From NCBI GenBank assembly GCA_963770835.1, contig CAVYRH010000003.1, forward strand, positions 1 through 64,000: a stretch of 64,000 nt of DNA. The letters run 5' to 3'. How positions within the stretch are numbered: position 1 is the stretch's first letter; each line of letters starts with the position of its first letter. This DNA is from an uncultured Pseudomonadota bacterium. GTDB lineage: Bacteria; Oederibacteriota; Muellerivitia; Muellerivitales; Muellerivitaceae. A program made the position numbers and the translations under genes. The notes beneath the pieces are model-generated. The model saw only the letters and a list, made by a program, of their open reading frames with translations, searched no databases and had not been told where the DNA came from. Positions 1,610 through 46,748 of the stretch are shown here, piece by piece.

Positions 1610-1720
1610 GAAGGTTCCCCGGGGGTAGGACTACGTTATTATTCACAAAGAAGGAAAAGCCTCAAATGGCATTTCCGTAATCCACTTCTCGGCTGGCCAT
1701 TAAAAAGTTTGTCCACGACG

Positions 1721-3661
1721 GTGCGTCCAGAAAAGGCAGGTGTGTTCAGCAAGAGATAGTCTTGCATGGGTAATAGCCAAAGCCCATTAGCTAGGATGGC
1801 AGGCAAGCGGGAAACCAAATGCCTGAAGCCCATCAACAAAGCCATCGAAAGGATGGTGAGCGAGTCGTCGGGCCGTAACGAAAGTAAATGCACAGGTGGC
1901 CCCGAAAACACTTGCCTCGGAGGCTGAGTCCGCCGTCGTGGGACGAAAGCATCATGGGACAGCGCGGAGAAATGGCTGAAGCGCTGGAACACTCCGACGG
2001 GGTGATAGCAACGGCACGAAGACAAGGACACGCCAAGCAACTGGAGAAACCCTCCTTGCCCCAGGCAGAAATGCTTGGAGAAAGGTAGGCCGTATAACCG
2101 TGACGCGGGAAAACGGTCGAAGGTGAGAGGGTTTAGGATGGGTTCATGGTAGCGATGAAGCGGGGTAATGCCCGTGGAGCGAAGGAACCCTGCTGTTGTT
2201 AAGTCCCTCGACAAAACGGAAGGCAGTGACGGTATGAAAAAGACGTCAATTAACCTGCAAGACCTGAGACGAGAGATATACGTCAAAGCGAAGGCTGAAA
2301 AGAACTGGAGTTTCTGGGGACTGTACACCCATGTTTGCAAGATGGAAACGCTTCAACAGGCTTACCGAATGGCTAAGGTAAATAACGGAGCCCCTGGAAT
2401 AGATGGGGTGACGTTTGATGCCATTGAGGAGGCCGGAGTGGAGTCGTTTCTGGAAAGCATCCGGGGTGAATTAGTTCAAGGCACGTATAAGCCCGTTCGA
2501 AACCGGAAGAAGGAAATACCCAAGGGAAATGGGAAGGTAAGAGTCCTTGGGATACCCAACATTCGGGATAGAGTAGTCCAGGGAGCACTGAAGTTTATTC
2601 TGGAACCGATTTTTGAGGCCGATTTTCAAGAAGGGTCCTATGGGTATCGACCCAAGCGGACCGCTCATGCGGCTGTGAACAGGGTAGCATCGGCAATCGT
2701 CTGTAGAAAAACCCGAGTCATTGATGTAGACCTCAAGGCATATTTCGACACGGTAAGGCACGACCTTCTGATGAAGAAAGTTGCCCGAAGGGTTGAGGAT
2801 GAAACGGTGTTGAGATTGTTGAGGATGATCCTGAAGGCCAGCGGCAAAAGAGGAGTCCCGCAGGGAGGGGTTATTTCCCCTCTTCTGGCTAATCTCTACC
2901 TCAACGAGGTGGATAAGATGCTGGAAAAGGCAAAAGAAGTGACTCGGCAAGGGAAGAACAACTATATCGAATATGCGAGGTTCGCTGACGATATGGTGAT
3001 CCTTGTTAATGGATATCCGCAATGGGAATGGTTGGCAAAGGCTGCCTACCGAAGGTTACTTGAAGAATTGACCAAGCTCGACTTGCAAATCAACACGGAC
3101 AAGACGCGGATAGCAGACTTAACGAAAGGTGAAAGTTTCGGGTTTCTGGGGTTTGACTTTCGACAGGTGAAAACCCGTCGAGGGAAATGGGGGGTGAAGT
3201 TCACGCCGAAAATGAAGGCGCGAGCAACACTTCTGGGTAAGCTCAAGGAAACATTTGGAAGCTTCCAATCTCAGCCGGTGCAGAGGGTGATTGAGATTAT
3301 CAATCCCAAACTGCGTGGGTGGGTGAATTACTTTCGGATAGGGAATTCTAGGCGCTGTTTTAACTACGTGGAAAGATGGGTCGAGAATAAAATCAGACGG
3401 CATATGATGCGTGCGAAGAAGCTCGACGGTTTTGGGCGGGATAGGTGGAGTAGGGAGTGGATATATAAGTATCTGGGGTTGTACAGAAGCTACCAAATAC
3501 GATATTACCAAGAACCGAAAGCGCTACCCGTCTGATAGGTCACATAAACTTTGACAGGAAAGCAACAGGTGAGCGTAGTGCGGGAAATCCGCACGCTACG
3601 TTCGAGGAGGCGGGGACTGGAAACGGAGCCAGAAGGCCACCGCACCAGTCCTCGACCCTAC
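1721..3661 (+). mobile_element. Group II intron family A, intact, inserted inside a 28-bp site
   Basis: 5' GTGCG at 1721; domain V-like GAGCGTAGTGCGGGAAATCCGCACGCTACGTTC; 3' end CGACCCTAC; flanks rejoin to TGTCCACGACG|GGGACCCATCGTGGACA. Confidence 0.92.
2234..3535 (+). CDS. ltrA: Group II intron reverse transcriptase/maturase, no obvious endonuclease domain (ATG 2234 preferred over 2168)
   Basis: GAPGIDG, LGIPNIRDRVVQ, SYGYRP, GVPQGGVISPLLANLYL, YARFADD, LRGWVNYF. Confidence 0.93.
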   Translation: MKKTSINLQDLRREIYVKAKAEKNWSFWGLYTHVCKMETLQQAYRMAKVNNGAPGIDGVTFDAIEEAGVESFLESIRGELVQGTYKPVRNRKKEIPKGNGKVRVLGIPNIRDRVVQGALKFILEPIFEADFQEGSYGYRPKRTAHAAVNRVASAIVCRKTRVIDVDLKAYFDTVRHDLLMKKVARRVEDETVLRLLRMILKASGKRGVPQGGVISPLLANLYLNEVDKMLEKAKEVTRQGKNNYIEYARFADDMVILVNGYPQWEWLAKAAYRRLLEELTKLDLQINTDKTRIADLTKGESFGFLGFDFRQVKTRRGKWGVKFTPKMKARATLLGKLKETFGSFQSQPVQRVIEIINPKLRGWVNYFRIGNSRRCFNYVERWVENKIRRHMMRAKKLDGFGRDRWSREWIYKYLGLYRSYQIRYYQEPKALPV

Positions 3662-3678
3662 GGGACCCATCGTGGACA

Positions 3679-4478
3679 TCGTGCCAGAGGAGGGTTTGCA
3701 GAGCCAGCAGGTGAGGGAGTAGGCCGATGAGGGTCAACCCAAGTCCTGACCAGGTAATCACCAGAGAGCCTGGAAGTCAGCCCCCGGCGTAGGATCGAGA
3801 GGTCCTGCCCGAAACGGGGTCATAAACCTCATTTAGTGAGGGAACAATCCAGCAGTCCGCAACATCAAGTGAATCCTGCCGCTTCGTGAATGGGACACCG
3901 AAAGGTGCAAGGGGATGCCGAGCCGCGTGTCTACTGGCGAAGGCCACGATCCCGCTGAAGAATCTGGTAGCAAGCGGGGCAAGTCCTCCGGAGTATGGGG
4001 AACGGAATGTTGGAAAGGCTATGCAAGCAAGCTGGGAGATCCTACCCGCCAAAAGACTTGCCGCTATAAGGCTAAAACCGAAAAGAGGCAAGGGTGGGAG
4101 GAAGTCGGAGGGGGTCACAGTACCGATGAAGGGGTGGACAACAAAACCACCCTGAGGGAAGGACCCCTGCTTCAACCATGTGTCTCAAAGAAGGTAGGCG
4201 CTGGAGCATGCCCCAAAAGGGCCAACAACTCTGTAGTACCAAAGCGCGAGGCCTTTGACAACAGGCACTATGCCGAGCGGCCAAGGGGGAAGTCGAACCT
4301 GTAAAGCCGCCGGAGGAGAGGTTGTCGGAAAGCCGTATGATCGAAAAGGTCACGTACGGTTTGACGAGGGGGCGCTGGAAACGAAGTGATGAGGGAACCT
4401 CGTTGGGGCACGGAACCGGAAACGGGGAAACAGATCAAGGAACCCTCTGCACACCATCGCGCCAGTGCTCTACTCTGC
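3679..4478 (+). mobile_element. ORF-less group II intron family B, copy 1 (800 bp)
   Basis: Domain V AAGCCGTATGATCGAAAAGGTCACGTACGGTT; homologous to both ends of the RT-bearing element at 39444-42944; same sequence at 38312-39111. Confidence 0.88.
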
Positions 4479-4539
4479 AGGGTTCGGGAAGGGAGAAGCA
4501 GTTTATAGATCCGGTACAAATGATTTGAAGTGCAGGTAA

Positions 4540-4711
4540 GGCCTTTATAGATAGTTTGAAGCGTGGGGTTAATCTCCCCTCGTTCAATGAAGCCGATTTG
4601 GCCGAAGTCCAAACCACAGCTTTCTCCAAATTCTTCCTGTGTCAGTTCTAATTTGAGGCGGTCGTCGCCTGACCCATTTGTTCCCAGGACTATTTTCTGT
4701 CGTAAGCCCAT
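4540..4711 (-). pseudogene. XRE-family helix-turn-helix remnant
   Basis: LTQEEFGESCGLDFGQIGFIERGEINPTLQTIYK; the ORF then runs into intron sequence. Confidence 0.55.
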
Positions 4712-4761
4712 CGAGGCATTTATACTTTAGCCGAAATTAATTTTTTGAAGCGAGAGAACGA

Positions 4762-5865: not shown

Positions 5866-5903
5866 ATGCCGGTACAAATCTCTTTTTAATTAGGTCGGAA
5901 ACC

Positions 5904-5939
5904 TGTCCACGACTGGGAGGTGTAATGACCAGGTGGACA
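5904..5939 (+). repeat. Variant of the 28-bp site with an expanded centre
   Basis: TGTCCACGACT-GGGAGGTGTAATGACC-AGGTGGACA, 38 bp after the GGDEF stop. Confidence 0.6.
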
Positions 5940-7075: not shown

Positions 7076-9922
7076 ATGTGGACTGAAATCCAGAAAAAAT
7101 CAAACTCTTTAAAGAGCCTCTTTCTCTTTTTTTTATTTTCCTCGTTGTTATCGTTATCTGTTCAACCCGCCTTGGCAGACCCGCAATGGACCATGGTATG
7201 GAATGATGAATTCAATGGCGCCGCCGGTTCCGCCCCCGACCCAACCCATTGGACTTATGACACGGGTGGTGGCGGCTGGGGAAACGGGGAATTAGAAACT
7301 TATACCAACACCACAGCGAACGCTTATCTGGACGGAAGCGGACATCTGGTCATTCAGGCTTTGGATAGTGGGGGCAATTATACTTCAGCCCGCATGAAGA
7401 CCCAGGGGGTCTTTGACCAGGCTTACGGCATGATCGAAGCTTCCATTCAACTTCCCGCGGGCGGCTCGGGCATTTGGCCGGCTTGGTGGATGCTGGGGCA
7501 AAATATTGGAACCGTCAGCTGGCCGGCTTGCGGTGAAATTGACATGCTGGAAGATGGGCTGCCCTGGTCCAACACCGTTATCGGAGAACATGTGCACGGC
7601 CCGGTAGGCGGCGGTGATTACAACGGTGGAGCGGGAGTGGGAAACAATTATTCGTTGCCCAGCGGAACGGTTAACAGCGGGTTTCATACTTACGGTGTGC
7701 AATGGAGTCCCAATCAGATCCAATTCTTCATCGACGGCACGATTGAACAGACCCTGACTCCCGGCTCTATTCCGGGCGGCGGTACGTACGTTTTTAACCA
7801 TCCTTTCTTTATGCTTTTGAACCTGGCGATCGGCGGCCCCTCGGGAAGCCCCGCGGGTGTTTCATTTCCCCAGCAGATGTTGGTGGATTATGTGCGTGTT
7901 TACAAGCTCACGGATAACGGCACTTCACCCTATGGCGGTACGGCGGCAGTCGTACCGGGAACTATTCAGGCGGAAAATTTTGATACCTATAACGACACCA
8001 ACGATCCGGTAGAGCCCGGCGAGGGTTTTGCTTACAACTCATTGCCAACTACCAACGTTAGCGGACAGTACCGCACAGGCGACGCCATTAGTGAGGAGGC
8101 CTGCAGTGATACGGGTGGCGGCTACGATGTGGACTATACCAGCCCGGGCCAATGGCTTCAGTACACGATTAATGTGACTCAAAGCGGAACCTATAATCTG
8201 GATGCCCGGGTGGCCAGCAGCGGCCAGGGCGGCACTTTCCATTTTGATTTGGACGGCAACGCCATTACGGGTGAGACGACCTGTCCCAATACGGGCGGAT
8301 GGCAGAGCTGGCAGGATGTGGTAGTTAATGTCGGAAACATCAACGCCGGTCAGCACGTTCTGCTTTTAGTTGAGGACACTATGGGGGCGGGTAATTTGGG
8401 CGTTTGTAATTTTAATTATGTCAATCTGAGCCTTGCCAACCCGCCCACGCCCACCCCCACCTTTACGCCGGTGGTTTCCGCCACTTGGCGGGTGAACGCG
8501 GGCGGTCCCAGTTATCTCGACACTCAGGGCAATACCTGGTCCGCGGATACTAATTACACAGGCGGTACGGGTAATACGATTGGCGGCGCCATTAGTGGAA
8601 CCGCGGACGCCACTCTTTACGACTCTCAGCGCTATGGTGCCAGCTTTAATTACATCTTTAATGTACCAGCGGGTTCTTATCAGGTTACGTTAAAGTTTGC
8701 CGAGACTTACTCAGGGGATTTCGGGGTGGGCGACAGGCTTTTCAACGTTTCCATTAATGGTACACAGGTTTTGTCAAACTTCGACATTTACGCCAAGGTA
8801 GGCGCTAACGCGGCATTGGATGAGATTTTCAATAACATTGCCCCCAGCGGGGGCGCCATTACCATCCAATTCAATGGTACAACCAGCCCGGATCCCATCG
8901 CGGTGATTGAAGCCATTGCGGTTATTCCGCAGCCCGCCACAGCCACCCCGACTTATACAGTGACTAATACAACTACCAATACGCCAGCCTATACGTTCAC
9001 GAATACGTCTACTAATACTCCAACTTCAACCGCGACCAATACAGTCACCAACACTTTCACAAAGACAGCGACCAATACCCCAACCAATACTCTGACCAAT
9101 ACCTCCACAGGAACCGCTCAACCCACCAACACTTTCACTAACACCGCTACTGAAACTTCTACAAATACGCCGACGGCAACCGCGACTAACATCGTGACCA
9201 ATACGGTTACGAACACGAACACAGGAACCGCTCAGCAAACGAATACAGCCACAAATACGCCGATGAACACTTATACTTTGACAGTGACAAATACTCCTAC
9301 CAATACCGCCACTAAAACAGACACCAATACATCCACTAATACGCCGACGAGCACTTCTACCTCGACGATGACCTACACGCCTACCAACACTCCCACTAAA
9401 ACCCTTACGAACACCCCAACCCATACGCCCACGGATACAACAACCTCAACACCGACCAATTCGCCCACCAGTACCCGCACTAATACTCTGACCAACACGG
9501 CGACGAATACCCCAACCGTTACAACAACTTTTACGAGAACCAATACATCCACAGCAACGTCAACCTTTACTTCTACCAGTACTTCTAGTCACACGAATAC
9601 TCTTACCATTACACCGACTTACACGCCGACGATCACCGAGAACATTGTGATCGCCGAGCCTTACCCAAATCCCTCCAGCGGATCGCCGATTACGTTTAAT
9701 GTTCAGGTGCCAGGTGAATCGACGGTGACGCTGGATGTGTTTACGCTGGCCTTCCGAAAAGTGTACACGGAAACAATTCGTGCTTACGGCCCTGTGACCC
9801 TTCAATGGGACTTAAGAGACGTTTCAGGAGCTCTGGTTTCGAACGGGGTTTATTATGCGCGTGTTCATGTCGCGGGCAGTCAATCGGCGACAAAAATTCT
9901 TAAAGTCCTCATCCTGAGATAA
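7076..9922 (+). CDS. Secreted GH16 beta-1,3-glucanase with CBM6-like and malectin-like modules, Thr/Pro linker and C-terminal sorting-like domain
   Basis: Signal peptide; WNDEF, GWGNGELE, YTSARM, GIWPAWW, catalytic EIDMLE; IQAENFD; RVNAGG and LKFAE; PYPNPS C-terminal domain. Confidence 0.88.
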   Translation: MWTEIQKKSNSLKSLFLFFLFSSLLSLSVQPALADPQWTMVWNDEFNGAAGSAPDPTHWTYDTGGGGWGNGELETYTNTTANAYLDGSGHLVIQALDSGGNYTSARMKTQGVFDQAYGMIEASIQLPAGGSGIWPAWWMLGQNIGTVSWPACGEIDMLEDGLPWSNTVIGEHVHGPVGGGDYNGGAGVGNNYSLPSGTVNSGFHTYGVQWSPNQIQFFIDGTIEQTLTPGSIPGGGTYVFNHPFFMLLNLAIGGPSGSPAGVSFPQQMLVDYVRVYKLTDNGTSPYGGTAAVVPGTIQAENFDTYNDTNDPVEPGEGFAYNSLPTTNVSGQYRTGDAISEEACSDTGGGYDVDYTSPGQWLQYTINVTQSGTYNLDARVASSGQGGTFHFDLDGNAITGETTCPNTGGWQSWQDVVVNVGNINAGQHVLLLVEDTMGAGNLGVCNFNYVNLSLANPPTPTPTFTPVVSATWRVNAGGPSYLDTQGNTWSADTNYTGGTGNTIGGAISGTADATLYDSQRYGASFNYIFNVPAGSYQVTLKFAETYSGDFGVGDRLFNVSINGTQVLSNFDIYAKVGANAALDEIFNNIAPSGGAITIQFNGTTSPDPIAVIEAIAVIPQPATATPTYTVTNTTTNTPAYTFTNTSTNTPTSTATNTVTNTFTKTATNTPTNTLTNTSTGTAQPTNTFTNTATETSTNTPTATATNIVTNTVTNTNTGTAQQTNTATNTPMNTYTLTVTNTPTNTATKTDTNTSTNTPTSTSTSTMTYTPTNTPTKTLTNTPTHTPTDTTTSTPTNSPTSTRTNTLTNTATNTPTVTTTFTRTNTSTATSTFTSTSTSSHTNTLTITPTYTPTITENIVIAEPYPNPSSGSPITFNVQVPGESTVTLDVFTLAFRKVYTETIRAYGPVTLQWDLRDVSGALVSNGVYYARVHVAGSQSATKILKVLILR

Positions 9923-9956
9923 AATTTATTTGGAAACAAAACGTCTGACCACCACC

Positions 9957-10008
9957 TGTCCAGAACGGGGAACGCCACGCACCGCAGCTTGACGCAGTGG
10001 CATTGGAC
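9957..10008 (+). repeat. Degenerate 28-bp site with an internal insertion
   Basis: TGTCCAGAACG-GGGAAC...ATTGGAC, at the same offset from its gene end as the intact site at 14921. Confidence 0.55.
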
Positions 10009-10183
10009 GAATTCTTATGATTCAAACCTGTCGTCAAAAATTGTCACTTTCAGTTTAGGTTTCTAGCCTTTCCTTAGCCTTGAGGCCACCATCAATTCCA
10101 TCCATTCCTTAGATAATTCCGTCCATTTTGTTTTTCCGGCAAAGGCAGTATTTTGTTTTTCAAGGAATTGGGCGGAGGGGGAA

Positions 10184-10546
10184 ATGCCGAAAACTAAAAT
10201 AGTCATTAACCGCAGGGTTAATCCCCGGGTTTTGATCAAGGTCCCCGTTAAATTCGTTCCGGCAGAAGATAAAAAAGTCTCCAAAAAGATCGAGGATTGG
10301 CGCGAATCCAAGAAATGTGGATTCACTCTTGATTTGAGCACTGGCGGCATGCAGCTTGCTGCGGACCATCACTTGACGGTCGGCAGCGTGTTGGAATTTA
10401 ACATTTACATCTTGGACAAGGTGAAGGTCGTGACCGTCTATGCCAAGGTGGTGTGGACGAATAAGAATAGCACCGGACTTCATTTCCTTCTGATTAAACC
10501 CGCCGAAATGGACGCCTTGACGTCTTTCCTTCAAAAGGCTTCTTAA
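10184..10546 (+). CDS. PilZ-domain protein (c-di-GMP receptor)
   Basis: RxxxR (RRVNPR) and DxSxGG (DLSTGG) motifs. Confidence 0.88.
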   Translation: MPKTKIVINRRVNPRVLIKVPVKFVPAEDKKVSKKIEDWRESKKCGFTLDLSTGGMQLAADHHLTVGSVLEFNIYILDKVKVVTVYAKVVWTNKNSTGLHFLLIKPAEMDALTSFLQKAS

Positions 10547-10712
10547 CGCAACGTTTATATAGTTTCTAACCCGATTTTTGACCCCGGTTAATCCCATCCA
10601 TCCTTTTGATAATTCCGTCAATTCTTATTAACGGACTTCTTTGCGATCATTACGTCACGGGTTGGTCCGAGGCCGTCTGAAAACGCTTCGGGCAAATGAT
10701 CGCAGGGGCGAA

Positions 10713-12872
10713 ATGAAAATGTTTTTGAATCAAAACTTTCTGAACCAAAGTTTGAATCGATTTCAAGTAAAAATCGTTTTATGTTCCGCGCGCCTTTTCA
10801 TTTTGATAGCGCTCTGGGGTTGTCTCCTTTTTCTTCCGGCCTCCAGGGTCCAGGCCCAGCCGCTCATCAACCTCAACGGCGGGGAAGTCATGACCTGCCA
10901 GTTTGTCAATAACACCACCGTGCCCAACAACCAGGTTTACATCTGTGTGCTGGCCAATAACGCCTACCTTACTCCGGGCGGTACGATGAACGCCATTGTG
11001 CCTGGGCAGAACGCCAGCAACTACACCATGACCTTGGCTCAGATCGACGCGTTGAGTCCCGCCGGGCTGCAGTTCCCCGTGATGGGCTCAGGCCGCATAT
11101 GGTTTTCTTTTTACTCGCCCCTGAACATGCCCATCGTGGCGGGGCCGGGCATTGTACAGCCCAACATCGGCAACCCGACCGACCCCAACATCAATACGGT
11201 CTTCGACTGGATGGAGTTCGACGAGGGCAGCGATTACATTTACTGCAACACCACCCAGGTGAATATGTTCGGCATTCCCTACACCATGGGTTTGTACAAC
11301 GTCGGCGGGGGGCTCAACGGCACCAGCGGCATCGCGGATTGCTACAGCGACATCGTGGCCAAGTACGAGGCTTATATGAATTCCATACCTGGCGCGTCCA
11401 TCTTCAACTCTCTGGTGGGGTCAGTGCGCATCGTGGCTCCTGCGGATGGCACTTTCGCGGCGGGCGCGGCCAACGGCACTTACTTTGACAGCTATATTTC
11501 CCAGCTCTGGACCGAGTACGCGTCTACGCCCTTGGTCATCAGCACGGGGGGCAATACCTACTCGGGCACCACGACGGGCCCGGGAAGCCAGATGACTTTT
11601 ACCGGCCCGGGCGGGCCATACACTGTGGGCTATCCCACCACGCAGGACGCGCTGGCCGCTTCCGGCGTCTTCGCCAACGGAAATCCCACGGAGCTGGGGT
11701 TGGAAGTGGTGATGGCCGCGGGCATTAACCGCCACGTTCTCGACAATGCCGCCAATCTCAACAACCCCGCGGCCTTTTATCAAACCGCCCCCAGCAATTA
11801 TTACGCGGCTTTCTGGCACTCGGTCAATCTTAACAACCTGGCCTATGGATTTCCCTATGACGATGATGACAATCAAAGCGACCTTCTGGTCAGCGCCAAC
11901 GCCCGTGCGTTGGCGATTACTTTCAGCGGCTGCAATTCCACGCCCACCAATACTTTTACGCCTTCTCCCACGGCTACCTTTACCAACAGCCCCACGGCCA
12001 CTAATACTTTCACCCATACCGCTACTTCCACCTTTACGCCTACTAACACCGCCACCAAGACCAGTACCAATACGGCAACCAACACTTCCACCAATAAAGC
12101 CACCCATACCACGACTTCCACCTCAACGCCGACCAATACCGCCACCAACACCAGTACCAACACTTCCACCTATACTTCCACCAACACAGCGACTTTCACT
12201 TTTACGCCGACTAACACCGCCACCAACACTCCTACCAATACAGCAACCAACACTTTCACCAATACTTCTACCAACACCGTGACTTCCACCTTTACGCCGA
12301 CTAGTACGGCCACCAACACCAGTACCTATACAGCAACGAACACTCCTACCAATACGGCAACCTATACTTCCGTCAATACCGCTACGACCACCGCTACAAA
12401 TACGCCGACCCCAACTTCAACGCGCACCGCCACTCCCACATCGATGAATACACCTACCGCGACATCGACTGTGACGCCCCTCAAAACACCCACCCCCGCC
12501 CTGACGCCGACGCCGTCAGCCACGGCCACCGTTACCCCGGTCAATACCCTTACGAACCTCTGGACTCCGACGGTTCCGGCGGATGTTTTCCAGATCTGCA
12601 AGAACGTTTTTAACGAAACCAGCGATGGGACGGTCTGCATCACGCTCTCATCTTCCCAATATCCCGGTCCGGTGGCTTTGAGGATTTACAACTCGGTGGG
12701 GGAGCACGTTAAAACGCTCTTCGAAGAACAGCTGACTCAGCCGCTCTCGCTCACGGTGGTGAATTGGGATGGAACCAACAAATTCGGCCAGAAAGTCGCC
12801 AGCGGTATTTACATTGTTTATCTCACGAAACCCACCAGCGTCGCCACCGGCCGACTGGTGGTTCTTCGTTGA
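10713..12872 (+). CDS. Secreted GH64-like beta-1,3-glucanase with Thr-rich linker and FlgD/CTD-like tail (ATG 10713 preferred)
   Basis: SGRIWFS, DPNINTVFDWMEF, NTTQVNMFGIP, NYYAAFWH, AYGFPYDD. Confidence 0.82.
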   Translation: MKMFLNQNFLNQSLNRFQVKIVLCSARLFILIALWGCLLFLPASRVQAQPLINLNGGEVMTCQFVNNTTVPNNQVYICVLANNAYLTPGGTMNAIVPGQNASNYTMTLAQIDALSPAGLQFPVMGSGRIWFSFYSPLNMPIVAGPGIVQPNIGNPTDPNINTVFDWMEFDEGSDYIYCNTTQVNMFGIPYTMGLYNVGGGLNGTSGIADCYSDIVAKYEAYMNSIPGASIFNSLVGSVRIVAPADGTFAAGAANGTYFDSYISQLWTEYASTPLVISTGGNTYSGTTTGPGSQMTFTGPGGPYTVGYPTTQDALAASGVFANGNPTELGLEVVMAAGINRHVLDNAANLNNPAAFYQTAPSNYYAAFWHSVNLNNLAYGFPYDDDDNQSDLLVSANARALAITFSGCNSTPTNTFTPSPTATFTNSPTATNTFTHTATSTFTPTNTATKTSTNTATNTSTNKATHTTTSTSTPTNTATNTSTNTSTYTSTNTATFTFTPTNTATNTPTNTATNTFTNTSTNTVTSTFTPTSTATNTSTYTATNTPTNTATYTSVNTATTTATNTPTPTSTRTATPTSMNTPTATSTVTPLKTPTPALTPTPSATATVTPVNTLTNLWTPTVPADVFQICKNVFNETSDGTVCITLSSSQYPGPVALRIYNSVGEHVKTLFEEQLTQPLSLTVVNWDGTNKFGQKVASGIYIVYLTKPTSVATGRLVVLR

Positions 12873-12909
12873 AACAGCATGAGGTTGAGGTCAACCATTT
12901 CAAGGGGAG

Positions 12910-14886
12910 TTGTCGGTGAAACAGTTATTTCTAAAATTCTCGAAATTTTTTTTAAACACGCCTTCCCGAATCGTTTCATTTACCGCCTTGTTTTTTCTGG
13001 CTCCTTCCGCCTGGGCCAAGCCCCCCTACCTCGTTTTCGGATATCTTCCGGATTACGACACCGTCACCTTAAGCGCCCTTTCCTGGGGCGACATGACCCA
13101 TGTGTTGGAAGCCTTCGCTGAGTTAGACGTAAATTACAACGTCACCTTTCCCTATGGCCAGAGGGCCAACCTGGTTTCCACCGCCCATTCCAACAACACG
13201 CGGTGCCTGCTTTCCTTCGGGGGGGAAGGTTCGGGCAGCGGCTACTGGCCCGCGCCCGGTGCCTCCATGATTACGGCAGTGAATAACATCATGGCGGTGG
13301 TCAACTCCAATGGTTACGACGGCGTGGATATCGACTGGGAATTTCCCACAGCGAGCAACGAATCCGACTTCATGGGTTTAATGACGGCGCTGGCCGGCGC
13401 TCTCCACGTCACGAACGGCTATGACGGCAAACCCCGGCAGCTGACCTTTACCATCAGCGCGGGCGCGAATATCTGCGGCATCAACTGGGCCACCATCGGG
13501 CAGTATGCCGATTTCGGAATTCTCATGGGGTACAGCTATGGATTGGACCAATTCAACGGTCCCATGATCGATACCGCCGAATACGGGGACTGCGCCGGCA
13601 ACTACAACATACTGGGCGACATTGTGGACTCGGTGAGGCGGGTGACGGGCTGGGGACTTTCCTCCGGTCAAATCATTCTGGCCTGTCCTCTCTATTCCAA
13701 CCAGGGGAACACGCTGACGACCATCCTTGCGGGTACTTTGACCAACTTTTACACTCCCCAGGACGAGGCCTCCTACAGCAGCGGCGACACCGGTGTGGAA
13801 AACGCGCAAACCTATTGCGATAAGATCAATTGGTGCGGGACGCAGTCGCCCCCGCTTCCTGGCATCGGACTATGGGAAATTTCCCAGGCCTATCCGCCTA
13901 CCGCCAACGCGGGGATATCCCAAGTATGGGCTGTGATCGGGGCGCGCAGTTCCTGCGTGACCTACGGCGGCGCCACCCCGACTCATACGGCTACCAATAC
14001 CGCCATCTCCACCGCCACTCAAACCTCCACCCATACCGCGACCAATAGCCCCACCAATACGTTTTTCCCCACGGGGACAAGTACTCCTACGGGTACCGCG
14101 ACAAACAAAACGACGAACACGCCTACGGTCACTCCAACTCCAACCACCACTCATACAGCGACCAATACAGCCAGTTCAACTGCGACTCAAACCTCCATGA
14201 GCATCGCGTCTTCAACAGCGACCCATACGTTGACGGCTACGCCGTCAAATACTCCTACGGGCACACCCACTTTAACCGCTACCTATACGCCAACTAGCAC
14301 ACCTGCGAAAACTTCTACCGATTCTCCAACGAATACGCCCTCGGACACACCGACTTCAACGAACACTCATACTTCTACCAACAGCCCGACCAATACCGCG
14401 ACCAATACGTTGTCCCTTACGGGGACAAGTACTCCTACGGGCACACCTACAGCCACAGCGACCAGCACTCGTACGAATACACGGACGATTACCTCCACCA
14501 GTAGCCCCACCGATACGGCGTCGAATACTTTGACGCCTTCGGCGACAGCGACCGTGACCCACACAGCCACTATTACTCCCACCGATACCGCGACGATCGC
14601 GTCGGTGGTTGTGATCTCCGCCCCCTATCCGAATCCTTCAAGGGGATTGCCTATTTCATTTAATGTCTCGGTGCCGGGTGAATCGACGTTGACGCTGGAT
14701 GTGTTTACCTTGGCTTTCCGCAAGATATACAGCGAAATGATCCAGGCTGATGGCTCTTTAACCCTTCGGTGGGATTTAAGGGATGTTTCGGGAATACAGG
14801 TGGCGAATGGGGTTTATTACGTTCGTATCCACGTCGCGGGCAGCCAATCGGCGACAAAAATTCTTAAAGTACTCATCCTGAGATAA
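12910..14886 (+). CDS. Secreted GH18 chitinase-like hydrolase with Thr-rich linker and C-terminal sorting-like domain
   Basis: LLSFGG and catalytic [11 protein letters not shown] (DxxDxDxE). Confidence 0.88.
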
Positions 14887-14920: not shown

Positions 14921-14948
14921 TGTCCACGACAGGGACCCGTCGTGGACG
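14921..14948 (+). repeat. 28-bp 11-6-11 site
   Basis: TGTCCACGACA-GGGACC-CGTCGTGGACG. Confidence 0.9.
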
Positions 14949-25378: not shown

Positions 25379-25381
25379 CGA

Positions 25382-36365: not shown

Positions 36366-37376
36366 GTGAAAGTTCTCATTGTGAAAATCGCCGCGGTCGG
36401 GGACGTGGTCATGGCCCTTGCCATGCTGGAACCCTTCCTCCAAAAGGACCCGGACGCCCAAATTACCTGGGTTTGTGGCAAGACGGTTGAACCCCTCCTG
36501 CGGCAGGTTGGAAAAATACATGAACTCATCGTGGTGGATGAAGCCAAGCTGTTGAAGGGCGGGTTCATCCCAAAAGCCCTGGCCTTGGCCGGCGTTTGGG
36601 CCAAGCTTTTGGGGAGGCGGTTTGATTTGGCGGTGACGGGCCACTCGGACCCGCGCTACCGGCTTTTAAGCCTTCCGGCCTCCGCGGCAATCCGCCGGGG
36701 TTTCGGCAAACAAGCGGACGGAAGAACAGGGCCGGTGAGCGGACGGTATCACGCGGATGAATATGCCCGCCTGGCGACGGGGGCGGACGGCCCAACGGCG
36801 GTAAAAGCTTCCATCCCCATCCTTCGGCTGCCTTTACCGGCGGAGTTGGAACAGATTCTCCAGCCGGGAAAGAAAATCGTCGCCCTCGCCCCGGGCGGCG
36901 CCAGGAACATCCTGAGGGATGACGCCCTCAGGCGATGGCCGCTGGAAAATTACGCCCAATTGGCGGAAAAGTTCCTGCGGGACGGGTTTCAAGTGCTGGT
37001 GACGGGCTCTTTATCGGACTTTTGGATCAGGGAATCCTTCAAAAATATGGCCGTCACCGATTTAGTGGGCCAAACACCCCTTCCGGACTTGATCGCCCTT
37101 TATGGGAAATGCCATCTGGTGGTCACGCACGACAGCGGGCCGCTTCACCTGGCTGTCGCATCGGGCGTTCCGGTTTTAGCCCTCTTCGGCCCCACCGTTC
37201 CGATGGAGAAGGTTCCCGTCAGTGAAAAAGTCAGCGTGATTTGGGGCGGAGAACATTTGGCCTGCCGGCCCTGTTACGATGGAAAAAATTACGCCGATTG
37301 CAACGACAACCAGTGCCTGAAAAGCGTCGGGGTGGAACGGGTTTATGCCGAGGCCAGCCGGATGCTCCGCGGATAG
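36366..37376 (+). CDS. GT9 heptosyltransferase family (GTG 36366 preferred)
   Basis: KIAAVGDV, RRWP, VTHDSGPLHLA, LACRPC. Confidence 0.9.
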   Translation: MKVLIVKIAAVGDVVMALAMLEPFLQKDPDAQITWVCGKTVEPLLRQVGKIHELIVVDEAKLLKGGFIPKALALAGVWAKLLGRRFDLAVTGHSDPRYRLLSLPASAAIRRGFGKQADGRTGPVSGRYHADEYARLATGADGPTAVKASIPILRLPLPAELEQILQPGKKIVALAPGGARNILRDDALRRWPLENYAQLAEKFLRDGFQVLVTGSLSDFWIRESFKNMAVTDLVGQTPLPDLIALYGKCHLVVTHDSGPLHLAVASGVPVLALFGPTVPMEKVPVSEKVSVIWGGEHLACRPCYDGKNYADCNDNQCLKSVGVERVYAEASRMLRG

Positions 37377-37391
37377 GACCCGCATTGGACA
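37364..37391 (+). repeat. Degenerate 28-bp site at the left border of the array, overlapping the GT9 stop
   Basis: GCTCCGCGGAT-AGGACC-CGCATTGGACA. Confidence 0.55.
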
Positions 37392-37685: not shown

Positions 37686-37713
37686 TGTCCACGATAGGGA
37701 CCCGGATTGGACA
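37686..37713 (+). repeat. 28-bp 11-6-11 site
   Basis: TGTCCACGATA-GGGACC-CGGATTGGACA. Confidence 0.85.
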
Positions 37714-38283: not shown

Positions 38284-38311
38284 TGCCTACGACGGGGACC
38301 CAGAGTGGACA
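38284..38311 (+). repeat. 28-bp 11-6-11 site (intron target)
   Basis: TGCCTACGACG-GGGACC-CAGAGTGGACA. Confidence 0.85.
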
Positions 38312-39111
38312 TCGTGCCAGAGGAGGGTTTGCAGAGCCAGCAGGTGAGGGAGTAGGCCGATGAGGGTCAACCCAAGTCCTGACCAGGTAATCACCAGAGA
38401 GCCTGGAAGTCAGCCCCCGGCGTAGGATCGAGAGGTCCTGCCCGAAACGGGGTCATAAACCTCATTTAGTGAGGGAACAATCCAGCAGTCCGCAACATCA
38501 AGTGAATCCTGCCGCTTCGTGAATGGGACACCGAAAGGTGCAAGGGGATGCCGAGCCGCGTGTCTACTGGCGAAGGCCACGATCCCGCTGAAGAATCTGG
38601 TAGCAAGCGGGGCAAGTCCTCCGGAGTATGGGGAACGGAATGTTGGAAAGGCTATGCAAGCAAGCTGGGAGATCCTACCCGCCAAAAGACTTGCCGCTAT
38701 AAGGCTAAAACCGAAAAGAGGCAAGGGTGGGAGGAAGTCGGAGGGGGTCACAGTACCGATGAAGGGGTGGACAACAAAACCACCCTGAGGGAAGGACCCC
38801 TGCTTCAACCATGTGTCTCAAAGAAGGTAGGCGCTGGAGCATGCCCCAAAAGGGCCAACAACTCTGTAGTACCAAAGCGCGAGGCCTTTGACAACAGGCA
38901 CTATGCCGAGCGGCCAAGGGGGAAGTCGAACCTGTAAAGCCGCCGGAGGAGAGGTTGTCGGAAAGCCGTATGATCGAAAAGGTCACGTACGGTTTGACGA
39001 GGGGGCGCTGGAAACGAAGTGATGAGGGAACCTCGTTGGGGCACGGAACCGGAAACGGGGAAACAGATCAAGGAACCCTCTGCACACCATCGCGCCAGTG
39101 CTCTACTCTGC
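38312..39111 (+). mobile_element. ORF-less group II intron family B, copy 2
   Basis: 800 bp; no difference from 3679-4478 seen by eye. Confidence 0.88.
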
Positions 39112-39385: not shown

Positions 39386-39415
39386 TAACCTACCGTTTTA
39401 AACTGTCATGGAAGT

Positions 39416-39443
39416 TGTCCACGACGGGGACCCGTCGTGGACA
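39416..39443 (+). repeat. 28-bp 11-6-11 site, consensus copy (intron target)
   Basis: TGTCCACGACG-GGGACC-CGTCGTGGACA. Confidence 0.92.
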
Positions 39444-39990
39444 TCGTGCCAGCGAAGGTTTGTAGAGCCAGCAGGTGAGGGAGTAGGCCGAAGAGGGCCA
39501 GCCCAAATCCTGACCAGGTAATCGCCAGAGAGCCTGGAAGTCAGCCCCCGGCGTAGGATCGAGAGGTTCTGCCCGAAACGGGGTCATAAACCTCATGCAG
39601 TGAGGGAACCATCCAGCAGTCCGCAACATCAAGTGAATCCTGCCGCGTCGTGAATGGGACACCGAAAGGTGCAAGAGGATGCCGAGCCGCGTGTCTACCG
39701 GCGAAGGCCATGATCCCGCTGAAGAATCTGGAGCAAGCGGGGCAAGTCCTCCGGCGTACGGGGAACGGAATGTTGGAAAGGCTTTGCAGGCAACCTGGGA
39801 GATCCTACCCGCCAAAAGACTTGCCGCTATAAGGCTAAAACCGAAAAGGGGCAAGGGCGGGAGGAAGTCGGAGGGGGTCACAGTACCGTTGAAGGGTGGA
39901 CAACAAAACCACCTGGAGGGAAGGACCCCTGCTTCAACCAAGCAACCGGAAAAGGGAGGCGCTGGAGCATGCTCCAAAGGGCCAACAACT

Positions 39991-41513
39991 GATATGAATG
40001 AGCCAGTCAAGCCCGCTGGTTTTTCCTTTGGTTTTATCCTACTCTTTTCCACCTCAAGGCCCTGCGAAAAGCCCTGATCTCGAAAGCCCGGCTTGTTTCG
40101 ACGATGAATCAAACTGATATTCGCGTGTTAGACCCATTGCTGGTTCCAGGGACGCAAGATTTTCATTCGTCGGGAGCTGCCTCGATCTCTGATCGTGGGT
40201 CGTCGCAGGCTTAGGCCTTTGCGCCACAGAGTTGTACCGAGGGTTCTCCAAATCGTTGCCAAGCTTCCGGAAACAGGGTTCTTCCTTCATGACCTTGTTA
40301 AACCATTCCTGTTGTTTCCTGGGCGATGGCCCACACAAATCCAGCCAACTCCCGGGCTACGGCCACCACTACTTTTTGGATGGGCTTGTTACGTTGGGTC
40401 ATTTTTAGAAACTTTTTGTACAGACGATCCTGTGCTCTGCGGGCGATCTTTAAAATCTCCACCGGACAACCCTCCCGCCTTTTTTCTAAAACCACGCCGA
40501 CCGACTTCCCATGGCGGTAACTCCAAGCCGATTCCACAAGAATCCGTCTCAAATGGGCGTTCCCGGTCTTGGTGATTCCTCCCCGACGGATTTTTCCACC
40601 TGAACTGCTTTCACATATCCCCAAACCCGCGTAACCCATGAAATTACGAGCGCTCTCAAATCGCCTCAAATCTTGGCCTTCCACCGCCAAGGTCATGGCG
40701 CTCAAGGTATCAACCCCTTTCAGGCACCTCAAATGCTTGACCAGTTTCCTGTAGGGTTCTTGGCTGGCCATCTCCTCCACTCGGCTCGTCAAACTCCTCA
40801 ACCGCTCATCTGCCTCTTGCTTCCCGCGGACATATGCCTCGAAAGTCTCATGCAGTTCCAGAGGTTCGAACTTTTGGGTTTTCAGCCATGCCTCATGGGC
40901 TGATCTCCAATTCTTAGCTTCTCGAAAGATACGACCTTGCCGAAGAAAGAAATTCGACAACCGGTGCCGGGCCTTTTGCCGGTCTTCTAGGGCATCCTCA
41001 CGAACTCGAACCAGATCCCGACAGGCTTCCTCTTGGATGGTCGGAACCCGCACTTCCGTCAGCTCTCCCGCCCTCCAAAGACGGGCCAACTTTTCCGCAT
41101 CTCGGCGGTCTGTCTTCACCCGATCCCCGGCTTTCACTGGAATTTTCCCAGGGGCGATTACGACGCACTTCAACCCCTTTTGGGTTAATTGCCGGTGGAT
41201 GTCATATCCACAAGGGCCCGCCTCGTACACAAACGTTATTGACCCTCGTCCTTCGTACTTACCCAGCATTTTCCCCAATGCTTTTGGGGTGTTCTCGATT
41301 GTAAAAATATCCTTCACATTTTCGGCCCTAGCCGGCAGGACCGCACCTACCACCGTATCCTTATGGACATCCAACCCGACCACCGTGATATTATTTTCCA
41401 TGAGCCAGCCCTCCGTATGCGGATAGGCTCCCTCAAGGAGCAACCCGCGAATTAGGGCCCTTCAACAAGGCCCGTTTTATTTTACGCAGGCCGCTGGCTC
41501 ATTCATGTTATCT
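39991..41513 (-). mobile_element. IS110-family (IS1111-like) element 1
   Basis: 13-bp subterminal inverted repeats ATGAATGAGCCAG/CTGGCTCATTCAT; CT core at both junctions; about 300-bp non-coding region 3' of the transposase. Confidence 0.9.
40298..41443 (-). CDS. IS110-family DEDD transposase/recombinase
   Basis: VGLDVHK, YEAGPCG, KTDRRDA, SSGG, ITKTGNAHLR, VVAVAREL. Confidence 0.95.
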   Translation of the reverse strand: MLLEGAYPHTEGWLMENNITVVGLDVHKDTVVGAVLPARAENVKDIFTIENTPKALGKMLGKYEGRGSITFVYEAGPCGYDIHRQLTQKGLKCVVIAPGKIPVKAGDRVKTDRRDAEKLARLWRAGELTEVRVPTIQEEACRDLVRVREDALEDRQKARHRLSNFFLRQGRIFREAKNWRSAHEAWLKTQKFEPLELHETFEAYVRGKQEADERLRSLTSRVEEMASQEPYRKLVKHLRCLKGVDTLSAMTLAVEGQDLRRFESARNFMGYAGLGICESSSGGKIRRGGITKTGNAHLRRILVESAWSYRHGKSVGVVLEKRREGCPVEILKIARRAQDRLYKKFLKMTQRNKPIQKVVVAVARELAGFVWAIAQETTGMV

Positions 41514-42986
41514 CCGAAGACAAGGCGCGAACCCTTCAAAGGGCGCTATACCGAGCGGCCAAGAGGAGCCCAAGCCGAAGATTTCATGTACTGCATGACA
41601 GGATGACCCGATGGGATGTCCTGACAGCGGCATGGAAACAGGTGAAGGCTAATAAAGGCCAAGGAGGAGTGGACGGGGAAACGCTGGAATGGATTGAAGA
41701 GAAAGTGGGGACTATTCCATTCCTGAAGGGCATTCAGGAAGAACTCAAGGCTGGGAAGTATCTGCCTAAACCTGTGAGACGAGTGGAAATACCCAAACCC
41801 GATGGTAGCAAGAGGCCGTTGGGAATCCCGGTGATTCGGGATCGGGTAGTTCAAGCGGCTTGCCGGAAGTTGGTGGAACCCATCTTTGAGGCGGACTTTC
41901 TGGAAGGCTCGTTTGGATTTCGGCCAAAACGCGGAGCCCAACAGGCCCACCGGGAGATCAAGAAGTGGATCAACGGGGGGTACACATGGGTGGTCGATGG
42001 AGATATTAGGAAGTACTTCGATTCCATCGACCACGACAAACTGATGGTGCTTGTGCGCCAGAGGGTCAGTGATCGAAAGGTTCTGAAACTGATCCAAGGG
42101 TGGCTGAAGGCGGGTGTGTTTGAGGAAGGAAGGCTTACGCCGACTCTCCGAGGGACACCGCAAGGCGGGGTGATCTCACCGCTGTTATCCAATGTTTACC
42201 TTCACTTGCTGGACAAGGTTTGGAATAAGAGGCACAGGAAACTGGGTAGGCTGGTGCGCTACGCCGACGATTTTGTGGTGTTGTGCGGAAGCCAAGCCCA
42301 TGCGGAAAAGAGCCTGGAAGTCATCAAGGAATTGATGGGACGACTAGGGCTTGAACTGCACCCCGAAAAGACACGGCTGGTGGAAATGGGGCCTGGGAAG
42401 GAAGGGTTTGACTTCCTTGGGTTCCACTTTCGAGTAGGTATGCCGGTGGTAGGATTGGGTAAGACCTGTTGCCTGAGCTGGCCGAGCCGGAAGGCCATGA
42501 AGAAAATCGCCGAGAAAGTGAAGCAGATGACGGCGGGCCGAGAGCGGCTCTTATCTCCAATGGAGGATGTAGCGAAGGCTTTGAACCCGGTGTTAAGGGG
42601 GTGGGTCAACTATTTCCGAATTGGGGACAGCCAGCCATACTTTTCCAAGCTTCAATTTTACGTACTCGAAAGGCTGACTTTGTTCCGGAGGCGTAAGTAC
42701 GCCTGGGAAGGACGAACATGGTCGATCGAGGAAGTGAAACGCCTTGGTTTGAACTGGATTCCAGCTTTTGCCTTGAATGCTGCCGGTTGAAAGGTTGTCG
42801 GAAAGCCGTATGATCGAAAAGGTCACGTACGGTTTGATGAGGGGGCGCTGGAAACGTGGTGATGAGAGCCGGACTGAGGCCCAATCCGAAAGGGTTGGAT
42901 TCGCCACCGTACTCTAAGGCATACGCGCCAGCGCTCTACTCTGCGGTAGAAAAAGCTTACGAAGCCTCGAAGCATATGGGGGGGGG

Positions 42987-43450: not shown

Positions 43451-43453
43451 ATT

Positions 43454-43481
43454 TGTCCACGACGGGGACCCGTCGTGGACA
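43454..43481 (+). repeat. 28-bp 11-6-11 site, consensus copy, unoccupied
   Basis: TGTCCACGACG-GGGACC-CGTCGTGGACA. Confidence 0.92.
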
Positions 43482-43612
43482 ACAAAGAATTGTAAAAAAG
43501 GTCATTTCAAAGGGTGCCCGCAACTCTCATGCCTCTTAAATTTGTATTTTGAGGTAATCTTTATTGGTCTCACGTCCTTAGGAACGTTAGTATTTCGAGA
43601 ATTATTGATTGG

Positions 43613-45292: not shown

Positions 45293-45299
45293 TTTTGGC

Positions 45300-45327
45300 T
45301 GTCCGCGACGGGGACCCATCGTGGACA
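45300..45327 (+). repeat. 28-bp 11-6-11 site (IS target)
   Basis: TGTCCGCGACG-GGGACC-CATCGTGGACA. Confidence 0.9.
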
Positions 45328-45395
45328 GGTAACATGATGGCCATTCCACCGCCGGGATTAAACTATTCCCGGTGAGTAGCCACTCATAAGGAGGA

Positions 45396-46472
45396 ATGAC
45401 CATGAAACAGATTAGCAAAAAAGGATTCCAAGGCAAGGAGGTATCCAAGCGGGACGCCGTGTTTGTGGGGCTCGATGTCCACAAACGAAGTATTTACGTA
45501 GCAATCAGGATCAATGGAAAGGAAACCGGAACCAAGTCTGTGCCCGCGGATTGGGAAGCTGTGGTGAAGGTTCTGGAGCCTTACCGAAAAGGGTTAAAAA
45601 AGGTCGTCTACGAGGCAGGACCTACTGGCTTTGGCTTGGCACGTCGCCTTCGGGAAGTGGGATACCCATTGGACGTCATCGCCCCGAACAAAACACCTCG
45701 TGTAGCTCAGTTGGAAACAAAATCCGACCGGTTGGACTGCCGCAAGCTGGCGGAGTACGCCGAAAAGGATCTCTTGCGGGCTGTGGCGATCCCAACCCTC
45801 CAGGAAGAAGCGGATCGGCAAGTGGTGCGTTTGAGAAACGCGATGGTGGAACAAAAACGCAAGGCCAAACAAAGGATCAAAAGCTTTTTCCTCCAATATG
45901 GATTCAAGGAACCTAGAGGGCTGGATTACTGGACCCACGAGGCCATCGGAGTTTTGCGGGATATGGAACTGCCGCCGGCCCTGAGATTCACGTTGGATAG
46001 CCTATTGGAAGATCTCTTTTACTTTGATAGGCAGCTTAAAGACGTGAACATACGTTTGCGGGTCATGATGAAGGACAAGGCCTACGAGAAAAAGGCTAAG
46101 ATCCTCAGGTCCCACCCGGGAGTGGGTGAAGTAACGACCCTGCAAATGTTAACGGAGATTTACCAGCCGGAGCGCTTTCAAAACGCCAAACAGGTGGCGG
46201 CTTACGTGGGGTTGGCCCCAAGGATCAGGCAAAGCGGAGAAACTCGAAAGGAAGGCCATTTGCAGAAGGCCGGAAAAGGAACCTTGAGGGCTACCTTAGT
46301 TGAAGCTGCCTGGTCATGGATTCAAAAGGATACCCAGGCCAACCGCGTTTTCCGCCGGTTCGTCCGTAATACGGGGCATGTCAACAAAGCGATTGTGGCA
46401 ATGGCTCACAAGCTTTTGATTCACCTTTGGACTATGTTGGTTCGAAAGGAAGTTTATCGGCCCATGCTCTAA
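45396..46472 (+). CDS. IS110-family DEDD transposase/recombinase
   Basis: VGLDVHK, YEAGPTG, KSDRLDC, PGVG, GLAPRIRQSG, AIVAMAHKL. Confidence 0.95.
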   Translation: MTMKQISKKGFQGKEVSKRDAVFVGLDVHKRSIYVAIRINGKETGTKSVPADWEAVVKVLEPYRKGLKKVVYEAGPTGFGLARRLREVGYPLDVIAPNKTPRVAQLETKSDRLDCRKLAEYAEKDLLRAVAIPTLQEEADRQVVRLRNAMVEQKRKAKQRIKSFFLQYGFKEPRGLDYWTHEAIGVLRDMELPPALRFTLDSLLEDLFYFDRQLKDVNIRLRVMMKDKAYEKKAKILRSHPGVGEVTTLQMLTEIYQPERFQNAKQVAAYVGLAPRIRQSGETRKEGHLQKAGKGTLRATLVEAAWSWIQKDTQANRVFRRFVRNTGHVNKAIVAMAHKLLIHLWTMLVRKEVYRPML

Positions 46473-46660
46473 AGAGGTTTCAGCCTCAGTTTCGTGATTC
46501 GACCCCTTAGGAATGACCACGAGTTTTAGCTGTGCCTTAGGCACGTTGGACAGGTGGTGGCTTCCCTCAGGATTATCGAATTCTTATCTTGTGCCTCGAG
46601 CACGAATAGCAGCGTGAATCCACGAAACCAAAAGGCTGACCGTAGGAGAAAATTGGACTT
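46473..46660 (+). ncRNA. Putative bridge/seek RNA of IS element 2
   Basis: Two repeated GTGC-N5-GCAC hairpins, each flanked by segments matching the target (TGGACAG) or donor junction (ATAGCAG). Confidence 0.7.
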
Positions 46661-46748
46661 GAGGAATGGCCTCATAGCAGGAATGGCCTCATAGCAGGTA
46701 AAATTGGCTCAGCTGGGGGTTGGTCAACATGACCTGGGGGGATAAAAA

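Follow-up and report, generated by a model that had tools for sequence, protein, structure and literature searches.

We analyzed a 64,000-nt stretch (the window) of the genome of an uncultured soil bacterium, in which a 28-bp site recurs between genes and is occupied by two group II introns and by an insertion sequence (IS) of the IS1111 type. The genome is designated G000, and other G numbers denote related genomes. The reading that we consider likely is an integron-like cassette system with a shortened serine recombinase and with RNA-guided parasites matched to its site.

The 28-bp site and the cassettes between its copies

The site reads TGTCCACGACGGG GA CCCGTCGTGGACA, a palindrome in which 13-bp inverted repeats flank an asymmetric central GA (13-GA-13). 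A weight-matrix search of the metagenome-derived G000 assembly (4.58 Mb, 96% complete, 3.65% contamination) revealed 87 intact sites, and 98 once the intron designated A had been deleted in silico; the reversed genome contained none at the same score. In the window, the sites form two arrays, one with sites at 1710, 5904, and 14921 and the other reaching from 37364 (right half only) to 47167. IBS1 and IBS2 are intron-binding sites 1 and 2:

1710..1720, + strand, left 11 bp of a split site, cut off by intron A and holding its IBS1, CACGACG
3662..3678, + strand, core and right arm of the split site, with IBS1 and IBS2 of intron B
5904..5931, + strand, degenerate 28-bp site closing a GGDEF-gene cassette (score 12.5; reversed-genome control 0 at scores of at least 9)
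14921..14948, + strand, 28-bp site, last of the first array, following three glycoside-hydrolase genes
37364..37391, + strand, site with the right half only, at the start of the second array; it overlaps the stop codon of a GT9 glycosyltransferase gene
37686..37713, + strand, 28-bp site
38284..38311, + strand, 28-bp site
39416..39443, + strand, 28-bp site, consensus (13-GA-13)
43454..43481, + strand, 28-bp site, consensus
45300..45327, + strand, 28-bp site
47167..47194, + strand, 28-bp site opening a cas1-cas2 cassette, recurring at two other G000 sites

A looser site pattern was matched in 27 of the 30 other family genomes (28 of 31 counting G000), and a stricter one in 15 of 24 family genomes versus 0 of 16 genomes outside it. 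Among the 80 of 165 matches listed, most pattern-bearing records were titled candidate division FCPU426, and the remainder uncultured bacterium, uncultured proteobacterium, or Firestonebacteria.

Neighboring sites less than 9 kb apart in G000 were direct repeats in all 67 pairs (0/67 opposite), with a median spacing of 1.2 kb and one or two genes between them, and the longest open reading frame (ORF) was co-oriented with the array in 49 of the 51 cassettes scored. Identical cassettes occurred with different neighbors inside G000 (an 891-bp cassette four times, the cas1-cas2 cassette three times), cassettes also recurred with new neighbors between genomes, and half-sites were found at array edges. 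All four relatives that possess the gene upstream of site 1710 carry another gene at this locus, with no site in the 330 nt examined. A corresponding empty allele of the second array was sought, and no orthologue of the GT9 gene was found at E 1e-60 in five genomes. Contigs from other samples, each covering at most 0.21 of the stretch, gave four listed joints, none of them from site to site; contig ends at sites may be repeat breaks. No sequencing run listed as holding the stretch in a DNA-type search was recorded as RNA.

The crossover was mapped with 457 distinct sites, pairs with intron B or the element IS2 attached being excluded. The 21 pairs with a common left flank showed 11 differences in positions 1–13, none in 14–15, and 43 in 16–28; for the 27 pairs with a common right flank, the respective numbers were 26, 0, and 13. 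Position 11 segregates with the left flank and position 16 with the right flank, and the crossover lies between positions 11 and 16. The initial annotation of the window had supposed that the site bounds mobile cassettes. The direct repeats, the cassettes in new orders, and the halves segregating with their own flanks bear this out, and we regard it as very likely.

In the same 457 sites, the left inner arm (positions 7–10) is kept at 75–95%, and its mirror (19–22) varies, at 56–75%. As to cassette content, a cas1-cas2-like gene pair followed by a 37-nt repeat forms a cassette at three 28-bp sites (window 47239–48670 and 60721–61875; G000 C3, C15, and C16). The cas1 gene in the window has an internal stop codon, and the second ORF of the pair has no Pfam match. 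The repeat occurs 27 times, 0.15–12 kb apart, and one of the "spacers" (60758–61838) is a copy of the cas1-cas2 region itself. Between two sites of the first array (window 7076–14886) lie genes for secreted-type GH16, GH64, and GH18 glycoside hydrolases with long Thr-rich repeats.

RNA-guided elements at the site

The elements at the sites, with their exon-binding sites (EBS1, EBS2) and intron-encoded protein (IEP) genes, are as follows:

1721..3661, + strand, group II intron A, with a reverse transcriptase and maturase ORF at 2234–3535 and domain 5 (D5) with an AGC triad near 3569
1904..1909, + strand, tentative EBS2 of intron A, GAAAAC, which would pair at −13..−8 of the target and is less well supported than EBS1
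1934..1940, + strand, EBS1 of intron A, CGTCGTG, in the loop of a stem with compensatory changes
3679..4478, + strand, intron B1, an ORF-less 800-nt derivative; EBS2 ATGGG at 3890–3894, EBS1 TGTCTAC at 3928–3934
38312..39111, + strand, intron B2, ORF-less, identical to B1 over the aligned length; TGTCTAC at 38561–38567
39444..42944, + strand, intron B3, full-length, 93% identical to B1; EBS1 at 39692–39698; IEP ORF from 39969, resuming after IS1 to 42790
39991..41513, − strand, IS1, IS1111-type, inserted at the beginning of the IEP gene of intron B
45329..46697, + strand, IS2, IS1111-type, with a transposase at 45396–46472, sub-terminal inverted repeats, and a 3' non-coding region
46524..46532, + strand, IS2 seekRNA guide 1, TTTTAGCTG, complementary to the core and the bases right of the site
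46547..46553, + strand, IS2 seekRNA guide 2, TGGACAG, matching the right-arm end

The initial annotation had proposed that three unrelated RNA-guided elements are programmed against this one site. The sequences that it quoted were all found in place (CGTCGTG in A, TGTCTAC in B1 and B3, TGGACAG in IS2), and the genome-wide collection of insertion points that it called for placed 10 of 12 copies of A, 16 of 20 of B, and 4 of 5 readable IS2 ends at sites. That the elements are unrelated did not hold, since introns A and B are homologous: their IEPs are 39–40% identical, and both belong to Rfam RF02003. Their group II identity rests on the Rfam families RF02003 and RF00029, the Pfam domains RVT_1 and GIIM, and EBS1–IBS1 covariation. 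Plasmid matches to the IEP reach 64% and are labelled only ltrA. The suggested likeness to group IIC-attC introns was not supported either. IIC introns have a CGC triad, a 3–4-bp EBS1, and no EBS2 and insert after a hairpin, with IIC-attC introns in antisense (PMC7923331, PMC3001079). A and B show an AGC triad, a 6–7-nt EBS1, in B a covarying EBS2, and mostly sense orientation.

Intron A is present in G000 in 12 near-identical copies. Ten are inserted exactly after site position 11, the arm/core border named in the initial annotation, all in sense orientation, and at least 8 of these 10 loci are independent (C3 and C24 share flanks, and the end of C4 and start of C11 may be one locus). The other two occupy a single position in another IS, which carries a DDE-type transposase-like ORF; the target there has TGTC..CGACG in common with the site. 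Of the words complementary to the guide in G000, 8.5% lie in sites (binomial p = 1e-9, the copies not all being independent). Ten further 5' ends were found in relatives. Six have the loop CGTCGTG at a site, one of them displaced by 4 nt; one with this loop lies off-site; one is a second copy after an intron end; one with the loop GAAGGG sits at CCCTTC; and one has another loop on a contig that holds no 5' exon. In the stem under the EBS1 loop, 98% of cells are paired across seven related sequences, with 4 of 7 pairs changed on both sides. None of 500 shuffles reached this score and slid controls were 22–51% paired, figures that are not a probability because the sequences are related. Intron A or a relative was found in 9 of 31 family genomes (one as a 37-nt match). 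Its Rfam D5 scores 39.9 against a gathering score of 40, and a Pfam domain search found no En domain in its ORF. Since the left arm is parted from the core, intron A should inactivate the site. The initial annotation's "safe harbour" describes the site well for host genes, and less well for the recombination site that intron A splits.

Two further observations concern intron A. At G043:C3:169456-169972 (L066), an intron A relative without its first G comes directly after a left half-site and GGGA, as though the junction had formed at the central GA of the site. The GT2 gene, site, intron A, and intron B of the window (221–4478 region) are duplicated with small indels at G000:C24:21450-24799, either as a segmental duplicate or through strain mixture.

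The B family comprises 20 copies in G000. Sixteen follow site position 28 directly, two lie at right-arm look-alikes outside the arrays, and two elsewhere with a different guide; an empty allele in G004 fixes the insertion point after A28. The three copies in the window all insert at the right-arm end, as had been stated, but they are not identical, two being ORF-less 800-nt forms and one a full-length 93% relative. Sense orientation was seen in 25 of the 28 site insertions counted. Of the guide-complement words in G000, 13.1% lie in sites (binomial p = 9e-13 for 16 of 18 copies with a site-matching guide, not all of them independent). The loops TGTCTAC and TGTCCAC sit at GTGGACA, and the target of the two copies with the loop TGTCTTA is TATGACA, which belongs to no site. 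A further segment acts like an EBS2, pairing with site positions 16–20. Among the 14 G000 copies with the EBS2 ATGGG, 12 are at CCCAT or CCCGT, one at ACCAT, one at CCCAG, and none at CCCTT, where one G043 copy sits; both copies with AAGGG are at CCCTT, and the copy with ACACC is at a GGTGT variant. B introns were found in 8 of 31 family genomes, and an intact relative of B lies at G000:C11:107425. B introns begin with UCGUG or GCGUG and most end with GC, not GUGYG...AY (window 3679, 39444, 4478).

IS1 interrupts the B3 IEP gene after codon 7. All six IS1 copies are inserted in introns of the B family, namely, in each of the three full-length introns of the B3 type and in three without an ORF, and the IS1 non-coding region contains a 9-nt complement of its intron B target. 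As it targets the start of the B IEP gene, IS1 disables a parasite of the cassette system, on which it is itself parasitic.

IS2 is represented in G000 by four full copies, a 5' fragment, and a 3' fragment at a contig edge. In the window it adjoins the right end of the site with a duplicated CA(G) core. Its placement at the same site end as intron B was confirmed for 4 of 5 readable left junctions (two per strand), with the qualification that half of the target lies outside the site, in the cassette leader. IS2 shows the IS1111 features described in PMC11187229, namely, DEDD and Transposase_20 domains, sub-terminal inverted repeats, and a top-strand guide 5' of the bottom-strand guide. Comparison of four related non-coding regions showed a constant scaffold interrupted by two variable segments. 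The downstream segments TGGACAG, TGGACAG, CCCATTAG, and TTTGTTAG match left flanks ending in GGACAG, GGACA, GAATTAG, and ACTTAG, and the upstream segments complement the right flanks (TTTTAGCTG with CAGCTAAAA, CTAATTCC with GGAATTAG, and more weakly in G043). Relatives at 63% have other guides and correspondingly other targets. Of the guide-complement words in G000, 9.9% lie in sites (binomial p = 4e-4, again with copies not all independent).

The loops are taken as guides because relatives with altered loops sit at correspondingly altered targets. Natural covariation thus supports the EBS1 assignments of the initial annotation; folding the hairpins alone did not single the guides out. Sequence and covariation together establish the predicted pairings, and the chemistry is presumed to be that of the known families. 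On this sequence evidence, the site is very probably targeted by RNA pairing.

The candidate recombinase and competing explanations

The single Resolvase-family match in G000 is a 275-aa protein with Resolvase and Recombinase domains (Pfam), encoded outside the window (G000:C17:12078-12905) by a gene with its stop codon 15 bp away from a site. Nineteen proteins of 275–283 aa, this one included, group together at 68–100% identity, with the next relatives at no more than 59%. All 19 end just before the zinc-ribbon motif of longer relatives and lack a zinc ribbon and coiled coil; the serine nucleophile motif is present, and YxRVSS and DRL are invariant. They form one branch (SH-aLRT, an approximate likelihood-ratio test, 99; quick tree of the first 60 of 120 matches) under purifying selection (ratio of nonsynonymous to synonymous substitution rates, dN/dS, 0.03–0.16 where computable). 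A site lies within approximately 40 bp of the stop codon in 10 of 10 family places, five of them 5'-truncated or frameshifted remnants, versus 0 of 9 other loci. In metagenomes, a full site lies beside 4 of 5 short forms (one locus is closely related to G020, and at another the site is 111 bp distant and oppositely oriented), the fifth contig ends in a site-like stretch, and more distant, mostly long relatives show no such linkage (0/75). In each of the five genomes richest in sites, the gene is present either complete or as a fragment.

A Foldseek search with the AlphaFold model gave Bxb1 as best match (E 1e-13); with a predicted local distance difference test score (pLDDT) of 77 and a predicted template modelling score (pTM) of 0.47, the domain orientation in the model is unreliable. 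A PDB sequence search matched the catalytic domain only. In LI integrase, the recombinase domain contacts positions 9–11 from the center and the zinc ribbon positions 16–24 (PMC3783163); in the 28-bp site, the outer arm is conserved. The coiled coil inside the zinc ribbon imposes direction on large serine integrases (PMC5499577). An enzyme without either would presumably act on a short symmetric site and do so in both directions. Crossover sites of small resolvases are also approximately 28 bp long. Judged from sequence, the short serine recombinase probably moves the cassettes.

Five broken copies of its gene (L069, L072, L073, L048, L054) keep the 3' end and the adjacent site; their breakpoints differ and show no half-site. 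As alternative movers, the 12 tyrosine recombinases of G000 were considered and set aside, none passing the integron integrase cut-off: TIGR02249 gave at best 44.6 bits against 265 in the 96% complete assembly. By eye, they are mostly island integrases beside tRNA-like sequence, a three-gene cluster, and one Xer-like protein. Six are paralogous integrases of 356–371 aa (G000 C1, C2, C5, C10, and C26), 55–80% identical where compared, which adjoin tRNA-like sequence where the flanks are full. Y1/RAYT transposase genes are also present; the array maps viewed showed no fixed link to the sites, and no dedicated follow-up was made.

According to the model that we propose, the palindrome would be the crossover site of a gene-cassette system in one family of candidate phylum FCPU426. 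A cassette, consisting of right half-site, gene or genes, and left half-site and arranged head to tail in many arrays, would leave and re-enter the arrays through exchange at the central GA or next to it. The recombinase would have kept the catalytic and recombinase domains and lost the zinc ribbon and coiled coil, so that it would read approximately 13 bp on each side of the center and recombine identical sites without directionality. Three RNA-guided elements would have guides matched to the site because it is abundant, conserved, and intergenic. EBS1 of intron A would pair with positions 5–11, and the insertion would split the site and fuse two cassettes. Intron B would pair through EBS1 with 22–28 and through EBS2 with 16–20 and land just outside the site; in IS2, one seekRNA guide would pair with 23–29 and the other from 27 onward into the cassette leader. 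Neither B nor IS2 breaks up the 28 bp, and either could move along with the cassette downstream.

Several observations weigh against this model. The short recombinase was not found with the G000 query in 24 of 31 family genomes, among them the site-rich G002 (42 pattern matches, 98% complete), G041 (40), G023 (37), and G012 (24, 99% complete), and the rank test (p = 0.0007) overstates the case, as kin are not independent. In 3 of 5 full-length loci examined, the gene lies beside ArdC or RadC genes (by Pfam in G000) and may therefore encode the integrase of a fourth site-seeking element. A symmetric dimer gives no account of the conserved left inner arm beside its variable mirror. Since positions 14–15 are no more conserved than 12–13, the crossover is placed at 12–15 and not at the dinucleotide. 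Some duplicates in G000 may be strain mixtures, given the contamination of a metagenome assembly. The hitch-hiking proposed in the initial annotation was not seen either, all 17 readable 3' flanks of B differing from one another. As for the guides, isolated EBS1 hairpins do not exceed shuffles in stability (z −0.10 to −0.82), and the minimum-energy fold of B1 leaves the EBS1 motif outside a loop. The displaced intron A junction (in G043) and the off-site relative with an unchanged loop (in G024) depart from the pattern. In IS2, guide 1 of the G043 copy fits only 3–4 bases, the seekRNA stem covariation is not significant (reached by 126 of 500 shuffles with four sequences), and the fold pairs the two guides with each other.

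The cassettes might be real and yet be moved by another enzyme, either the XerC/D-like tyrosine recombinase of the host, for which the site would have an 11-6-11 layout, or an enzyme not yet recognised, with the short recombinase belonging to an ArdC/RadC-type element that simply uses the same site. The 28 bp do fit 11-6-11, intron A cuts exactly at 11|12, G000 encodes the Xer-like protein (G000:C11:156053), and the short recombinase adjoins mobile-element genes and is missing from many site-rich assemblies. However, pdif cassettes use inversely repeated sites (bioRxiv 10.1101/2022.12.17.520857), positions 16–18 vary (14%, 4%, and 5%) and move with the right flank, a poor fit to a 6-bp homology spacer, and no integron integrase was detected. 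Moreover, an element that uses the site needs its own recombinase to recombine it, and the cassettes would then be moved too. We consider this explanation unlikely.

It is quite improbable that the introns themselves build the cassettes, by recombination of B at a site with B at a look-alike upstream of a new gene and subsequent intron loss. The idea, which is compatible with the serine recombinase model, was put forward for IIC-attC introns in integrons (PMC3001079), and two B copies do sit at look-alikes outside the arrays; but sites occur in far more genomes (28/31) than A (9/31) or B (8/31), no intermediate was found, and the shuffling is left unexplained. Even less credible is a REP-like (repetitive extragenic palindromic) or terminator-like hairpin that spread by itself without recombination of the arrays. 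The site does fold into a perfect hairpin (z −4.9), G000 has Y1 transposase genes, and IS1111 members targeting REPs are known, such as ISPa11 (PMC11187229). Against this stand the right-arm variants that break the hairpin in many copies, the strict direct orientation, the one or two genes between sites, the identical cassettes in new orders, the half-sites at array edges, and the segregation of left and right halves with their own flanks.

Comparison with known systems

No description of this site, enzyme, or array was found in the open-licence literature, where a listing in a supplement could have been missed, and no mobile-element biology was found described there for the phylum. The closest parallel to the integron-like system proposed here is the integron array with its IIC-attC introns and IS1111-attC elements (PMC3001079, PMC7923331, PMC11187229), which shares the co-oriented one-gene cassettes and a repeated recombination site that serves as target for a group II intron as well as for an IS1111-family element. 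In contrast to integrons, no IntI was found, and the site is a short perfect palindrome. The attC boxes are R'' (RYYYAAC-type), R' (GTTRRRY), and L boxes (PMC7923331); the consensus of the 457 sites lacks R'' and R', and no attC covariance model was run. Unlike the antisense attC parasites, A and B insert mostly in sense, and two intron lineages hit two different site positions.

The system also resembles pdif/xrs modules, in which 28-bp sites surround one or few genes with an IS beside the site. Elements of the IS1202 family (ISAba32 subgroup) target pdif sites, for which a "safe haven" was proposed and the mechanism called speculative (both bioRxiv 10.1101/2022.12.17.520857). It differs from them in that the sites are direct and not inverted repeats read by XerC/D, and in that targeting would proceed by RNA pairing. 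With the large serine integrases (LI/A118, Bxb1, phiC31; PMC3783163, PMC5499577), the short recombinase shares catalytic and recombinase domains, a gene beside a presumed att site, and an asymmetric central dinucleotide that would fix orientation. It differs by the missing zinc ribbon and coiled coil and by about a hundred sites per genome of one 28-bp type, where those enzymes have distinct 40–50-bp attP and attB. IS2 corresponds to the IS1111 seekRNA elements ISEc11, ISKpn4, and ISPa11 in its DEDD transposase, sub-terminal inverted repeats, 3' non-coding region, and guide order (PMC11187229), and is unlike known members in its new target, about half of which lies inside a repeated site.

If the proposed system is correct, a 275-aa recombinase with a 28-bp site would be approximately half the size of Bxb1-type tools. 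The locus is also a natural reprogramming data set, in which matched changes in EBS1, EBS2, and seekRNA guides and their targets give pairing rules, and it places one site-destroying element beside two site-sparing ones. Since intron and IS1111 targeting of attC and IS1202 elements at pdif are already known, the ecology is a variant on a known theme. The host system lacks the defining features of integrons and of pdif modules, yet works like an integron. We lean towards an independently evolved form of gene capture, in which a serine integrase that lost its directionality module would have become a symmetric shuffler of cassettes on the 28-bp site. It would act in trans on the entire genome, being encoded by a mobile gene that closes some of the arrays downstream, and the site would have attracted nested RNA-programmed parasites of its own. 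These would comprise both intron lineages, the IS1111 element IS2, and IS1 as another IS1111 element with an intron as its target, repeating the history of attC. Cassette capture would then have evolved again from different parts, in a form that attC-based scans would miss.

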